From the sequence record MT446409.1: 53,453 bases of DNA, one strand, 5' to 3'. The translations under genes and the position numbers were made by a program. Positions within the stretch are counted from its first letter, which is position 1. Every line of letters starts with the position of its first letter. Under the pieces are notes generated by a model, which saw nothing but the letters and a program-made list of their open reading frames with translations, was not told the origin of the DNA and did not search any database. Shown piece after piece: positions 1 to 53,453 of the stretch. Origin of the DNA: Escherichia virus TH37.

Positions 1-543
1 AGATATTGAGTACCAGAATATTGAGCATCTAAGCAAAAGCCTAAACGAGTATCGCATTCACCCGTTGTCTCAACCTTTAACCAATCCAAAGCCAGACGAA
101 CATAAGTGAATGGCGTAGAAGGACGTTCAGCTTTAGGCATGTTCATCATGCGAGCAAGTGAACCAGCTGGATTCTGAGCAACATAAGTTAAACGCTTAGC
201 AGAAGTCCAGTCTCCACCGGAAATATCTTCCAGCTCTGCCATAAACATGTTGTATGCAATGGTAGTAGAACCATCTTCGTTAAACTTCTTAACGATGTTC
301 TCAACATTGTGAGAATACAAGCAACGAGCAAAGTCAGATGATTGTGGGTTAGGACCAGCACATGCTACATGGTACAGACGACCACGGTTATCAGCAAAGT
401 AGTCAGAGAACAGAGTGTCCTGACCAACCATTGCTACAGCATTGTTCCAAACATGGAGTTCAGTCTGGATTGCTTCTGGCATCTGCAAGCCACCATAAGT
501 ACGTTGTTCAATCATAGACTGGATGATGCGAACCATCTCAGTC
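1..543. repeat. Direct repeat of window end 52911-53453 (wrap-around of circular or terminally redundant genome)
   Basis: Positions 115-543 identical to 53025-53453; positions 1-114 differ at about 11 sites from 52911-53024. Confidence 0.9.
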
Positions 544-1217
544 TCCACATGGTACTCAGTATCTTGCAGGAATTCGATTGCAGCTTTCAGAGTCTTGGAT
601 GGCTTAACTTTGCCACCTTTAACGAAAGGCTTGCGACGAGATTCAGTTGTTACACGCTCAGTGAATGGAACTGAGGTATCTTTGGTTGTAACCAGTTCAA
701 CCCATGCGTCAGTCATCTGGAACGATTTGTCCTCGTTCATGGTGATGAAGCCAAAGTGCTTAGCTAAACCAATGAGGTTGATAGCTGGGTCAACATAGTG
801 CATTGACTTTAAGTCGTTGTTGTAACGGTTGGCATCAGCAATAGAAGAAGAAGCCAGCTCAACCATTGCAATGGCTGGGACAACATCATCACGAGTGAAT
901 GAGGTCATCATCTTGAAGATTGCGAGAGCAGCAATAGCACAGGTCTGAGGCTGCATATAGTTCTGTTTCTCTTTGGCACGGTATACCAGAGCCGTGATAG
1001 CAGGGACAACGGATTTGATAGTTTGAGTTGAGATAGTTGTCATTTTGCGAGTCTCCAAGTTAGTTTCGGTTTTAGTTTCGGATTGTGTAGCAGCAGTGAT
1101 TTCGTTAACCATTTGGTTGCAACGGTCCATCGTATCAAGCACGTCTTTCCAACCGTGGCCTTCTTCTTTTAAGCGAGCGCCATCAGCAGCCAGTGCACGA
1201 TATTCTTCATTAGTCAT
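1..1217 (-). CDS. T7-like single-subunit RNA polymerase, N-terminal part (gene runs off the window start; continues at 52013-53453 if the genome is circular)
   Basis: Minus-strand frame open from 1289 to 1; contains ...FADNRGRLYHVACAGPNPQ matching T7 RNAP FPYNMDWRGRVYAV; ATG at 1217 has GGAGA 5 nt upstream (alternative ATG at 1044); motif A-like LDAQYSGTQYL at window edge. Confidence 0.8.
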   Translation of the reverse strand, partial: MTNEEYRALAADGARLKEEGHGWKDVLDTMDRCNQMVNEITAATQSETKTETNLETRKMTTISTQTIKSVVPAITALVYRAKEKQNYMQPQTCAIAALAIFKMMTSFTRDDVVPAIAMVELASSSIADANRYNNDLKSMHYVDPAINLIGLAKHFGFITMNEDKSFQMTDAWVELVTTKDTSVPFTERVTTESRRKPFVKGGKVKPSKTLKAAIEFLQDTEYHVETEMVRIIQSMIEQRTYGGLQMPEAIQTELHVWNNAVAMVGQDTLFSDYFADNRGRLYHVACAGPNPQSSDFARCLYSHNVENIVKKFNEDGSTTIAYNMFMAELEDISGGDWTSAKRLTYVAQNPAGSLARMMNMPKAERPSTPFTYVRLALDWLKVETTGECDTRLGFCLDAQYSGTQY

Positions 1218-1279
1218 GATAGTCTCCAATTGATTATGATTTAACTGAAACGGATTAGACTTGCGTAGCCTATTCATAA

Positions 1280-1295
1280 TCACAACCAACTAATG
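1280..1295 (-). promoter_or_regulatory. Conserved phage promoter-like motif (gene-sense CATTAGTTGGTTGTGA), copy 1, 63 nt upstream of RNAP start
   Basis: One of 8 intergenic copies of a 16-mer, plus-strand consensus TCACATCCAACTAATG, all in the same orientation. Confidence 0.5.
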
Positions 1296-1824
1296 GTGAG
1301 ACTAGCTCATTACAACAGCGTGCTCTGATTGCCCTTGACCTTGACCCACTACCTAACTTGGTGTTGTTTGAAAGCCGATAGGCTGTAGAAAAAGTTGGGG
1401 TAGGGACCGTATTTAAGTCCGATAGGACGTTGGGCTTCCCCTCCCCGCCACCTCAAAAATAAAAAATAATATTAGGCGAACAAAGTGAGCAATTGCCACA
1501 ATTCTAGTCTCATTAATATTGTAGCAATTCGAGTCTCATTAATTCCGTAACAATATTTAAATTAAAAAAAAATTATATAAAAATTTTTATAACATAGTCG
1601 GACTTCTGTTCGAACAAATTCCGGCTAGATACAGCTGACCGACCATTTACCATTTGGTTTTGAACTTTACGCATTCCTAATATTACTCTAATATTGTAGC
1701 AATATTGGGAATAAGTAATATTGAAAACTTACTTATTTTATTCTAGCTCAAAGAGAAACGACGCTAACGCATCGAATCTCTTCTCACATATTAACTGACA
1801 AACGTCAGCCTTCACCATATCCAA

Positions 1825-2943
1825 TCATAATTCAAATCCACCCAGAGCATTGGTATCAACTTCGGAGTCAATTTGCCCAACCAGGTAGGAACTAATCTCC
1901 GTTTCCTGTGGAGCAACTTGTACAGCATCCGAATTCAACCATGCGTTAATCCATGGAATAGGATTCGTAGCACCTTTGAATGGGGCATCCAATCCAACTG
2001 CTTGCATACGAATATTCGTGATATATTCGACATATCCGCACAGAATTTGCTTGTTTAAGCCAATCATGGAGCCATCTTTGAACAGATAATCGGCCCAATC
2101 TTTCTCTTGTTGGGCAGCATCTTCGAACAATTTCTGGCATTCTTCGCGGCATTCTTGGGCAATTTCACCCATTTCTGGGTCATCTTTGCCACTCACCAGG
2201 ATATTCAACATGTGCTGAGTTCCAGTCAAATGGAGTGCTTCATCTCGTGCAATCAGTCGAATAATCTTGGCATTTCCTTCCATTAACTTGCGTTCAGCGA
2301 AGGCAAATGAGCAAGCAAAGCTAACATAGAAGCGAATTGCTTCAAGTGCGTTGATAGACATGAGGCATAAATAGAGCTTCTTCTTCAACTCACGAAGACT
2401 GATTTCATGACCAGCATGGTTCCCTTCTCCGAACAACTGCCATAATGCGGTTAGTTCTTGAAGCTCGTCATAATATTGGGAGATGCCAATTGCTCGTGCT
2501 TTGATATGCTCGTTAGTTACGATTTCATCAAAGATAATGCTTGGGTCTGTAACAATATTACGAATGATGTGGGTGTAAGAACGTGAATGGATAGTCTCGG
2601 AGAAAGACCAAGTTTCAATCCAAGTTTCAAGCTCAGGAATGCTCACAATTGGAAGCAAAACTGTGTTCGGTCCACGTCCTTGAATTGAGTCCAGAAGGAT
2701 TTGATATCGCAAATTACTGGTGAAAATGTGCTGTTCGTTTGCTGGAAGCTTCTGGTAATCAATACGGTCTTGTGAAACATCTACCTCTTCCGGTCTCCAG
2801 AAGAACGACAATTGTTTCTCAATCAACTTCTCAAATATGCCATACTTCTGCTGGTCATAGCGAGCAACGTTGACGTTCTGACCAAAGAACATTGGTTCTA
2901 ATAATTGGTTATTCTTGGTTTGTGAAAAGGTAGTGTAAGACAT
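1825..2943 (-). CDS. nrdB: Ribonucleotide reductase class Ia beta subunit (NrdB)
   Basis: 372 aa collinear with and near-identical to E. coli NrdB as recalled ([14 protein letters not shown]..., ...[21 protein letters not shown]). Confidence 0.95.
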
Positions 2944-2945
2944 TA

Positions 2946-3506
2946 TTATTTATTTCCTAAATACTTATAAAATTTATGTCCGCCATAAGTTCCTCTTCCA
3001 ACAACTCTTTTGAAATTACATTTCTCTGTAGCTGTGCAGAAGTGGGTGGCATCGGTTACATCCGGAGCATCCAACAATGCGAAGTTAATTGCTACATTCA
3101 TGGTGTCCCAAACCTGTTTTGATTCAGTCTTCCAATTTGTTTTAACTATGTTCTTCCATTGAGCATTCTTCTTCTTTGCTTCTCTTGTCCAAGCAAACTG
3201 GTTGCGTTGATAAACTACATCGCAAACGGTGTTAGCGAATGGCTTCCCGAATTTGATTCGATTACGGACGACATTAGCTACCAGAATCTTTCCATGTTTG
3301 CTTTCTCCACGAGCTTCAAACCAAATTACTTTGGCATAGCATTCTATATCTTTGCGTTGAGAAATAGATAGTTTCGGATTTCCATTTAAATAAGATTGAC
3401 TTGCAAATTCTGTAATAGTGGCGTTCACTGCCCCAGCCGAAGCTGGGACATTTGCGTGAAACAGACTCACCAACAGAAATGCAAGAACTTGTGCTGAGGG
3501 CATCAT
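2946..3506 (-). CDS. Endolysin, SleB/Hydrolase_2-type cell wall hydrolase with N-terminal signal or SAR sequence
   Basis: N-terminal hydrophobic leader [26 protein letters not shown]; WFEARGE and [13 protein letters not shown] motifs; adjacent to holin-like gene. Confidence 0.6.
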
Positions 3507-3521
3507 AGTTCCTTGTTTGCA

Positions 3522-3863
3522 TTATTTGGCCTTCTTAAACCAATTGAGTGGGTTGAGTTGTTTGATTGCAGCAGTGAAGCAATCTCGAATTGTGGTAATG
3601 ATTAGGTTAGCCCCAATCAAACCAATCACCATTGCGGCGATTGTGGCATAGCGCGGTTCATCTTTGAATATGTCCACGAAGCCTGGGAGGGAGAAAACGA
3701 ACGTACCAATGACCACACAAAGGAGGGCATCAAGAATAGCTTTCAGCAAGCCTTCCTTTTCATATGCCCCACGAATAAGTGCAGTCAATCCAGCCAGGAG
3801 TCCATGAAGAACTCCATACTGGTGCATTGCTTCCCAAACCATCTGGAAAGTTTGTCTATCCAT
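3522..3863 (-). CDS. Holin-like membrane protein (3 predicted TM segments, charged C-terminus)
   Basis: 113 aa, three hydrophobic stretches, C-terminal NWFKKAK, directly upstream of endolysin. Confidence 0.5.
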   Translation of the reverse strand: MDRQTFQMVWEAMHQYGVLHGLLAGLTALIRGAYEKEGLLKAILDALLCVVIGTFVFSLPGFVDIFKDEPRYATIAAMVIGLIGANLIITTIRDCFTAAIKQLNPLNWFKKAK

Positions 3864-51229: not shown

Positions 51230-51950
51230 TTTATCCCAATATTGTCACAATATTTACATGCGATGATAAAGCCTTCGCTTGGCTGGAAGCCAGTATTCAT
51301 GCGGGTTGCAAGAATATTGGGTGAATATTGATACATTTATTACATGCGAAATTGGCACAAATACTGTTACAAAATTAACATGCCAGATTGGTAGACGATT
51401 GTATCTTCGAGGTGATTAGTCCTCTAACAATTCTGCCACATTCTAACATGCCAATTTGTAGCAATATTTACATGCCATACTGTAGCAATATTGCCACAAT
51501 ATTTGTTGCTCAAAATCGGGGCGGCTTCTGCGTGAAAACGAGAGGCTTTGCTCCGACTCTTCTCTTCTTTCGAATTCTGATTGAAAGAAAGAAGCATGTC
51601 CAAAAGTTCCAATATTACAAAAGTTATCTCCCGGCTTGTGGGTGGGCCTTTATAATAGGAGATGAAGCAATATTGTCGCAATTGAACATGCTTTAGTTGA
51701 AGAACAGTTTCGAATGATAATCCTACTTCACACATGGTTGCTGGAACTTTGTCCGGCCAAAGACAGGGAGTTCAATGATTGCCACATCATTACAACGCTG
51801 TGTGTTTAGTTGACATGCTGAAATGTTTCTAGAATGATTTCAACATGACATGCGGAAGACTTCTCCGTATTCTGTTACTTCACATCCAACTAATGTCGAA
51901 TATTGAAACAATATTACATGCAGCAATATTGCTTGAATATTGGGAATTAA
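51230..51950. repeat. Dense array of short repeats (palindromic CAATATTG / GCAATATTGC and TTACATGC units) in non-coding region
   Basis: About 12 ACATGC copies and at least 10 AATATTG copies within ~900 bp. Confidence 0.6.
51881..51896 (-). promoter_or_regulatory. Conserved phage promoter-like motif, copy 8
   Basis: Plus TCACATCCAACTAATG (consensus copy). Confidence 0.5.
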
Positions 51951-52012
51951 AGGATTTAATTAATAAAGAATAAAGAAAGGGCCATCACCTTTCGATGACA
52001 GCCCTGTTTCTC

Positions 52013-53453
52013 TTATTGACAGAAGTAGTAAGCGTGTTCGCTCATCAGAAGCTCTTCAGTAACAATGTTCTCATGGTACATGTTGATGCCACCAAGTTGC
52101 TTAGACAGAGATTCAAACTGATTATTGTGAACAAAGATTTCAACATAAGCAGAACGAATTACTTCCATCATTTTAGGAGCATCAGCTAAGCAGCAACGGA
52201 AACAATCGTGAATTGAAGTAAAGCCACGAAGACCAGCTTCTTTAGCTTTGACTGCAACAGTACGAGCAACCAATGCGTCAATACCTTGAATGTAGTTAAC
52301 AACGAAGGTACGCTTGAATTCTTCTTTAGTTGGGTTGGACTCACGAATGGTCCAAGGCTTATTCTCCTGAATCTGACCAAAGATAACACGAGTTTGAGAG
52401 TCAACACGAATGCTGAATGCCTCACAGATTTCACGAGATGGGAAGCAAGGCTTCATTACAACCTGACCATCAGTGTGACGATATGTGATGTACTCTTTAC
52501 CAAGTTCAACACAACGATTGTATGCAGCATCAGCAGCTTTCTCGATGAACATGTTAATCTTAGCACCCAATGCGTTATGGATTGCTTCTACACAAAGTTC
52601 AGCAAATGCTTCTGCTTTCTCAACAGGAATCTGGAGAGATGCTGTCATGTATGCAATGAAGTCAGAAGAACCAGTTAATGCAGCTTTACCACCACCATAT
52701 TGGATAGCCATGTATGGAGTTTTGATAAACTTACGACCAGCTTTCGGATTCAAGAATTCATCCATGATTTCAGCAGATGGTTTCATTGAAGAACGGTCAA
52801 GCAACTTCAACAGTTCACGAAGAGATAACTGGTATGGGTCAGATGCTTTAGTTGATGAATCAACCAGACCTGTTGCACGAGCCATCTCCATGTTACCAGC
52901 AATGAATGCCAGATATTGAGTACCAGAACATTTAGCATCTAAGCCAAAGCCTACACGAGAATCGCATTCACCTGTAGTCTCAAACTTGAACCAATCCAGA
53001 GCCAGACGAACATAAGTGAATGGCTTAGAAGGACGTTCAGCTTTAGGCATGTTCATCATGCGAGCAAGTGAACCAGCTGGATTCTGAGCAACATAAGTTA
53101 AACGCTTAGCAGAAGTCCAGTCTCCACCGGAAATATCTTCCAGCTCTGCCATAAACATGTTGTATGCAATGGTAGTAGAACCATCTTCGTTAAACTTCTT
53201 AACGATGTTCTCAACATTGTGAGAATACAAGCAACGAGCAAAGTCAGATGATTGTGGGTTAGGACCAGCACATGCTACATGGTACAGACGACCACGGTTA
53301 TCAGCAAAGTAGTCAGAGAACAGAGTGTCCTGACCAACCATTGCTACAGCATTGTTCCAAACATGGAGTTCAGTCTGGATTGCTTCTGGCATCTGCAAGC
53401 CACCATAAGTACGTTGTTCAATCATAGACTGGATGATGCGAACCATCTCAGTC
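52013..53453 (-). CDS. T7-like single-subunit RNA polymerase, C-terminal part (N-terminus beyond the window end; matches 1-1217 across the repeat)
   Basis: DNRGRLYHV, motif A-like GLDAKCSGTQYLAF, motif B-like KTPYMAIQYGGGK, motif C IHDCFRCC collinear with T7 RNAP DWRGRVYAV / DGSCSGIQHF / MTLAYGS / IHDSFGT. Confidence 0.85.
   Translation of the reverse strand, partial: TEMVRIIQSMIEQRTYGGLQMPEAIQTELHVWNNAVAMVGQDTLFSDYFADNRGRLYHVACAGPNPQSSDFARCLYSHNVENIVKKFNEDGSTTIAYNMFMAELEDISGGDWTSAKRLTYVAQNPAGSLARMMNMPKAERPSKPFTYVRLALDWFKFETTGECDSRVGFGLDAKCSGTQYLAFIAGNMEMARATGLVDSSTKASDPYQLSLRELLKLLDRSSMKPSAEIMDEFLNPKAGRKFIKTPYMAIQYGGGKAALTGSSDFIAYMTASLQIPVEKAEAFAELCVEAIHNALGAKINMFIEKAADAAYNRCVELGKEYITYRHTDGQVVMKPCFPSREICEAFSIRVDSQTRVIFGQIQENKPWTIRESNPTKEEFKRTFVVNYIQGIDALVARTVAVKAKEAGLRGFTSIHDCFRCCLADAPKMMEVIRSAYVEIFVHNNQFESLSKQLGGINMYHENIVTEELLMSEHAYYFCQ

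Follow-up and report, generated by a model that had tools for sequence, protein, structure and literature searches.

The window, i.e., the whole stretch of 53,453 bp that was analysed, has a GC content of 43.85%, contains 0 tRNAs and carries its genes on one strand (minus). Escherichia virus TH37 is listed with 53,453 bp, 43.8% GC and 0 tRNAs under MT446409 and SRX8326082 (PMC7498436). By this agreement in length, GC content and tRNA count, the window very probably represents TH37. Within the first 6 kb, the nucleotide identity to TH33, MLP1, PYps23T and 2KOFFS amounts to 82–93%, and TH28 is also among the relatives, all of which infect E. coli, Shigella or Yersinia and belong to the Chaseviridae (Cleopatravirinae). 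The window phage is 93% identical to Escherichia virus TH33 and collinear with it over the whole length. Its size, in line with the ~52–56 kb of the family criteria, the unidirectional genes, the presence of a PF00940 polymerase and the nucleotide similarity place the phage within the Chaseviridae, subfamily Cleopatravirinae, as a Carltongylesvirus-like member.

Both ends of the window lie within the gene of an RNA polymerase on the minus strand, with the 5′ part at the left end and the 3′ part at the right end (Table 1). Joining position 52910 to position 1 yields a single open frame with a length of 704 aa, or 646 aa if the second ATG is used, which aligns without gaps over 1,941 nt against 10 relatives and matches the Pfam family RNA_pol (PF00940) with E = 3e-17. 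Mitochondrial RNA polymerase can be aligned at the catalytic motifs DxxCSG and HDC; the underlying PDB sequence search gave only a weak match (E ~0.003) and served solely to place the motifs. By family membership and by these two motifs, the enzyme resembles the T7-like single-subunit RNA polymerases. In contrast to T7 RNA polymerase, which has 883 aa, the enzyme of the window is shorter (646–704 aa) and its gene would lie inside the terminal repeat of a myovirus. Upstream of the polymerase gene, a simple consensus scan revealed no sigma-70-like promoter on the coding strand. A terminator-like hairpin weaker than the one listed in Table 1 is present after the ribonucleotide reductase gene (1774–1759, minus strand).

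An extra feature of the polymerase frame is an in-frame N-terminal extension of 57 aa (MTNEEYRALAADGARLKEEGHGWKDVLDTMDRCNQMVNEITAATQSETKTETNLETRK; window 1046–1217, minus strand), which arises from a 171-nt indel. It is common to TH33 and Shigella phage 2KOFFS and missing in MLP1, PYps23T, ST32, TH29, TH24 and BSBP01. The usual polymerase start codon with its own ribosome-binding site is kept at 1046, which would allow for two polymerase isoforms or for the fusion of a small upstream gene.

Table 1. Features of the window, with the terminal repeats of characterised relatives and the end overlaps of sibling records (coordinates are those of the window unless another record is named)
Feature	Position or size	Strand	Basis and remarks
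RNA polymerase gene, 5′ (N-terminal) part	1..1217	-	translation; Pfam PF00940; ATG at 1217; ATG of most relatives at 1046
RNA polymerase gene, 3′ (C-terminal) part with stop codon	52013..52910	-	continues from position 1 over the wrap
Terminator-like hairpin (12-bp stem and T run) immediately behind the stop codon of the polymerase gene	51978..52005	-	strong hairpin
Left overlap copy, contig start	1..543		gapless match to 52911–53453, 11 substitutions
Right overlap copy, start of the second lap, taken as authentic sequence	52911..53453		matches 11 relatives at 11/11 discordant sites
Contig tip, most likely noisy	1..115		11 private substitutions, ~10% divergence; 0 in the next 428 nt
Putative right-hand portion of the real terminal repeat	51885..52910		boundary by homology to PYps23T
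Putative left-hand portion of the real terminal repeat	1..1284		~1284 if PYps23T-like; ~1416–1419 if Y2/PM1/4HA13-like
Promoter-like motif CATTAGTTGGTTGTGA upstream of the polymerase gene	1280..1295	-	homologue of the motif that contains the start of the PYps23T repeat
Promoter-like motif CATTAGTTGGATGTGA downstream of the polymerase gene	51880..51895	-	homologue of the motif that contains the end of the PYps23T repeat
Sites of the 16-nt motif	1295–1280, 28103–28088, 33460–33445, 41084–41069, 43253–43238, 43394–43379, 47331–47316, 47847–47832, 51044–51029, 51895–51880	-	
PYps23T terminal repeat	1–2339 = 52531–54869		0 mismatches; polymerase gene 73–2013; checked in the record
Y2 terminal repeat	2,608 bp		0 mismatches; polymerase gene 225–2120; checked in the record
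PM1 terminal repeat	2,665 bp		0 mismatches; polymerase gene 225–2150; checked in the record
4HA13 terminal repeat	3,120 bp		annotated; polymerase gene 420–2363
TH23 end overlap	434 bp		one indel
TH24 end overlap	1,031 bp		a single mismatch at a distance of 38 nt from the end
TH29 end overlap	725 bp		no discrepancies
TH33 end overlap	847 bp		discrepancies: first 3 nt, position 8, one indel
TH28 (MT446402) end overlap	1–3818 vs 52073–55824, ~3.8 kb		~90% identity

A segment of the gene at the left extremity is found again at the right extremity. Here, the first and the last 543 bp of the window align at an offset of 52,910 with 0 indels, a match that far exceeds chance and represents the sole direct repeat >40 nt in the window. 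The discordant sites are 19, 23, 35, 44, 50, 63, 66, 74, 78, 89 and 115, followed by a perfect block of 428 bp (116–543 = 53026–53453). The original prediction had let this block begin at 115 (matching 53025) and had put about 11 differences into positions 1–114. The identical block does exist and the total of 11 is correct, but position 115 reads G in one copy and T in the other, so that the block starts at 116, and 10 differences fall into 1–114 with the 11th at 115. Both copies reach the ends of the window, and no unique sequence is present outside of them.

After removal of the redundancy, a unit of 52,910 bp (53,453 − 543) remains, which agrees with the non-redundant genomes of the relatives, namely 52,530 bp for PYps23T (minus one repeat copy), 52,854 bp for PYps3T and ~52,004 bp for TH33 (minus the 847-bp overlap). 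Furthermore, redundant ends were found in all five sibling records that were checked (TH23, TH24, TH28, TH29 and TH33). As in the window, a prefix of a few hundred bases to a few kb repeats the suffix, the overlap point is arbitrary relative to the genes and small discrepancies lie near the contig extremities. These records describe the same phage group and were probably obtained by the same sequencing and assembly procedure. The overlaps of TH33 and TH24 correspond to ~28–29 kb of the window and that of TH23 to ~1.3–1.7 kb; since they are located at differing genome positions, a tie to a biological site is not given. The overlaps of TH23, TH24, TH29 and TH33 contain 0–2 small discrepancies, several of them ≤40 nt from the contig extremity, in contrast to the 11 within 115 nt at the tip of the window. 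The sizes stated in the "complete genome" records of TH33, TH24, TH23 and TH29 are too long by 847, 1,031, 434 and 725 bp, respectively.

A wrap of the sequence is supported by the overlap, the restored gene, the collinearity with the relatives and the same artefact in the sibling records. This bears out the proposal, made from the sequence at the outset, of a wrapped genome of ~52,910 bp, since closing the unit restores one intact polymerase gene, the unit is collinear with the relatives and five siblings overlap likewise. The alternative named with it, a duplicated polymerase segment or two polymerase loci, does not correspond to the window either; the two ends hold complementary parts of the gene, and the real repeat of the family would be collapsed here. 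The study of the TH phages reports three rounds of plaque purification, MiSeq 2x250 reads, a coverage of ~52.6x and de novo assembly with Geneious (PMC7498436). Short reads from a phage with long terminal repeats would assemble as though the genome were circular, and an overlap-type assembler would have gone 543 bases into a second lap, with the overlap left untrimmed. Positions 1–543 and 52911–53453 would then be one and the same genomic place within the RNA polymerase gene.

A repeat at the ends of a Chaseviridae sequence could also be a physical one, either the direct terminal repeat of the phage itself or the trace of a longer molecule with two partial polymerase loci. The genomes of this family are linear with long direct terminal repeats (PMC12842549), and for PYps23T, restriction analysis, PCR across ligated ends and direct sequencing have established a repeat of 2,339 bp (PMC8762354). 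Virions of the family do have direct terminal repeats that carry the polymerase gene (PMC12842549, PMC8762354). The overlap has in common with them that the polymerase region at the genome "ends" is involved, and the wrap point of the window lies within the stretch homologous to these repeats. However, the characterised repeats are 2,339–3,120 bp long, i.e., 4–6 times longer than the overlap, start upstream and end downstream of the polymerase gene at intergenic boundaries, contain the whole gene in all four phages inspected (PYps23T, Y2, PM1 and 4HA13), and show 0 mismatches between the copies in the three records that include both of them (Y2, PM1 and PYps23T). In contrast, the 543 bp of the window start and end inside the gene, leave partial and exactly complementary gene parts at the two ends and differ at 11 positions; moreover, the five sibling assemblies overlap elsewhere, for three of them at the ~28–29 kb and 1.3–1.7 kb places given above. 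A physical repeat is thus very improbable, and the overlap as a Chaseviridae terminal repeat was ruled out on size, on boundaries and position, and on non-identity.

The real repeat of 2.3–3.1 kb with the whole polymerase gene would rather be collapsed in the contig, at a position deduced from homology (Table 1). The repeats of Y2, PM1 and 4HA13 start at a conserved CCTATCG/GAC/TTAAATACGGTCCC (also written CCTATCG/GAC/TTAAATACGG), which is found in the window at ~1426–1400 on the minus strand. By this homology, the virion DNA is probably linear, ~55 kb long and carries a repeat of ~2.3 kb or longer that holds the polymerase gene, so that the gene is probably present twice per virion. The 543-bp overlap would merely fall inside the stretch homologous to this repeat.

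The differences between the two copies were analysed on nucleotide and protein level. Translated on the minus strand, the left copy reads ...GFCLDAQYSGTQY and the right copy ...GFGLDAKCSGTQY, in agreement with the LDAQYSGTQ (left) and LDAKCSGTQ (right) reported initially. The differences had been called non-synonymous, which applies to 8 of the 11 (K>T, F>L, F>V, S>T, V>L, G>C, K>Q and C>Y), the remaining three being synonymous. They are distributed over codon positions 1/2/3 as 6/2/3. The synonymous to non-synonymous ratio of 3:8 differs from the 94:48 observed in the same gene between window and TH33 (Fisher p = 0.019), and transitions to transversions amount to 3:8 vs 83:59 in that comparison (p = 0.06).

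None of the 11 discordant sites is variable among 10 relatives, and 11 aligned relatives have the base of the right copy at 11/11 sites, the allele of the left copy being present in none of them. In a search of 50,697 phage records, where matches were found among 80 related records, the best match of the left copy reached 91.5%, a ceiling that corresponds to exactly 11 extra mismatches relative to the right copy. In the same 50,697 records, the first 130 nt of the right copy match ST32, Bp10 and SKA49 at 100% identity, and 14 records reach at least 99%. Using a pattern left open at five of the 11 sites, three contigs from IMG/VR and metagenomes were matched, all of which are of the right-copy type at 11/11 sites.

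None of the eight replaced residues varies among the polymerases of Y2, PM1, 4HA13 and PYps23T, i.e., in four genera; the polymerases of Y2 (Loessnervirus), PM1 (Suwonvirus) and 4HA13 (Sabourvirus, the three genera being named in the order of the phages) are only 72–76% identical overall. The stretch KPFTYVRLALDWFxFETTGxCDSRVGFGLDAKCSGTQYLAFIAGN is the best-conserved part of the polymerase in the alignment shown. The cysteine replaced by tyrosine in the left copy is the one of the catalytic DxxCSG motif and aligns with the cysteine of DGSCNG in human mitochondrial RNA polymerase. It also corresponds to the cysteine of DGSCSG around the catalytic Asp537 of T7 RNA polymerase.

Judged from the sequence, the 11 changes are most likely errors that were not subject to selection, at a contig tip of low coverage, because they are private, mostly non-synonymous, mostly transversions and located at residues invariant across genera, and because all of them lie within 115 nt of the contig extremity and then stop abruptly. 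Substitutions without indels are furthermore compatible with Illumina error. The first ~115 bases would most likely be a consensus of one or very few low-quality read tails, with ~10% random substitution errors that would end once normal coverage outvotes them. Against this explanation, the error density along the tip is flat (~10%) without a rise towards the end and the first 18 bases are clean. A tail with 10% errors is also somewhat surprising, as the authors report the removal of reads below Q30 (PMC7498436), and the sibling lysate TH28 held two real variants, so that mixed stocks did occur despite plaque purification. An adapter sequence at the tip was excluded, since the first 18 bases equal those of the right copy and of the relatives. 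Likewise, contamination by a sibling phage of the same run was rejected, since no sibling or other relative has any of the 11 alleles.

The TH28 record also provides a positive control for two co-assembled natural variants. Its ends differ by 281 substitutions in the main aligned block of 2,837 nt, and within each gene the great majority of them share a single codon phase (25:5:1 and 53:9:4). Because the overlap is only ~90% identical and the substitutions show this phase preference, the record is a chimera that combines two related phages of a mixed stock and not a 55.8-kb genome. The discrepancies of TH28 resemble natural variation, those at the tip of the window do not.

By analogy, the lysate of the window phage could have contained a second real variant with a polymerase that differs in a patch of ~100 bp, for instance after recombination with a relative, and the assembler would have taken one variant on each pass. 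The wrap geometry permits such a situation, TH28 exemplifies a real wrap of two variants (~3.8 kb, 90% identity) and recombination can produce a sharp patch boundary. Nevertheless, none of the 11 alleles is present in any relative; real variation in the polymerase gene is synonymous at ~2:1, as opposed to 8/11 non-synonymous changes and 3/11 on third codon positions here; the patch is placed exactly at the contig extremity; and the stock was plaque-purified three times. In addition, the variant enzyme would probably be impaired, because the eight replaced residues, including the cysteine of the catalytic motif, are invariant across four genera. A real minor variant is therefore unlikely, and it keeps a small residual weight because of the flat error density and the read filtering of the authors. 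The two haplotypes assumed in the original prediction are not supported, as every allele of the left copy is private, as the changes are for the most part non-synonymous and for the most part transversions and fall on invariant residues, and as TH28 looks different.

A related and still less probable reading regards the left tip as a real sub-population with eight replacements around motif A of the polymerase, a hypermutated or defective allele that would be kept by complementation in mixed infection. If this were true, the location of the gene in the terminal repeat might favour such an allele.

Substitutions that are clustered within ~100 bp and mostly non-synonymous would fit a hypermutation directed at this part of the polymerase gene, either by a diversity-generating retroelement with template and variable copy or by deaminase-type editing. 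However, no adenine specificity is present, with A at only 3–4 of the 11 sites in either copy and on either strand, neither C-to-T nor G-to-A changes dominate (8/11 are transversions), and the two "copies" become one locus after the wrap, so that a separate template does not exist. A diversity-generating retroelement or editing was ruled out by this mutation spectrum, and such an origin is regarded as next to impossible. A diversity-generating retroelement or editing system is not known from Chaseviridae.

In summary of these comparisons, it is quite probable that the 543-bp repeat is an untrimmed assembly overlap with a noisy left tip. The end repeat with its variable tip is ordinary and does not represent a biological feature. 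For the record, this means that the sequence is 543 bp too long and that the first ~115 bases are to be replaced by 52911–53025. The polymerase is to be annotated as one intact gene and the record to be re-oriented to the real terminal repeat of the family. A direct repeat at the contig ends, used as a signal for completeness or termini, is misleading here, as it indicates neither where the DNA molecule physically ends nor that the genome is circular. The main value of the analysis lies in the correction of the record, and a by-product, a promoter-like motif, may be more useful than the overlap finding itself.

This 16-nt motif, CATTAGTTGGATGTGA, occurs in 10 copies at ≤2 mismatches, all on the coding strand, where 0.07 would be expected by chance. 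A matrix scan returned the same ten sites and no others on either strand. Most of them are intergenic, i.e., between the listed ORFs, and several are located shortly upstream of start codons; seven lie in the early region. TH33 has the same set, the motif is also present in PYps23T, and variants flank the polymerase gene on both sides in PM1 and 4HA13 and on the downstream side in Y2. Conserved across four genera, the motif is a good candidate for the promoter of the phage's own RNA polymerase. According to the ICTV profile, promoters of this kind have not been identified (PMC12842549), and a review asserts that shared promoters exist (PMC8472413). A literature search for the motif string gave no phage paper among the matches listed, and an Rfam scan of the window gave no matches.

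The two repeat boundaries of PYps23T, 1 and 2339, are situated at the same place in two copies of this motif, ATTAGTTGGA/CGTGAA and ATTAGTTGGA/TGTGAA (together ATTAGTTGGA/YGTGA), which correspond to 1284 and 51885 in the window. The repeats of Y2, PM1 and 4HA13 start ~135 nt further upstream than the PYps23T boundary and have no boundary in the motif. Either the ends differ between the genera, or one of the end determinations was misled by the repeated motif.

Near the putative left end of the real repeat, a non-coding stretch of 600 nt between the ribonucleotide reductase and polymerase genes contains two tandem units of 26 nt, ATTGCCACAATTCTAGTCTCATTAAT and ATTGTAGCAATTCGAGTCTCATTAAT, which are 85% alike (window 1492–1543).

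On nucleotide level, the region of polymerase motif A (52911–53040) appears to be unusually strongly conserved, synonymous sites included, because these 130 nt are 100% identical in the window phage, ST32, Bp10 and SKA49 while the remaining polymerase gene is ~7% different from an IMG/VR contig.
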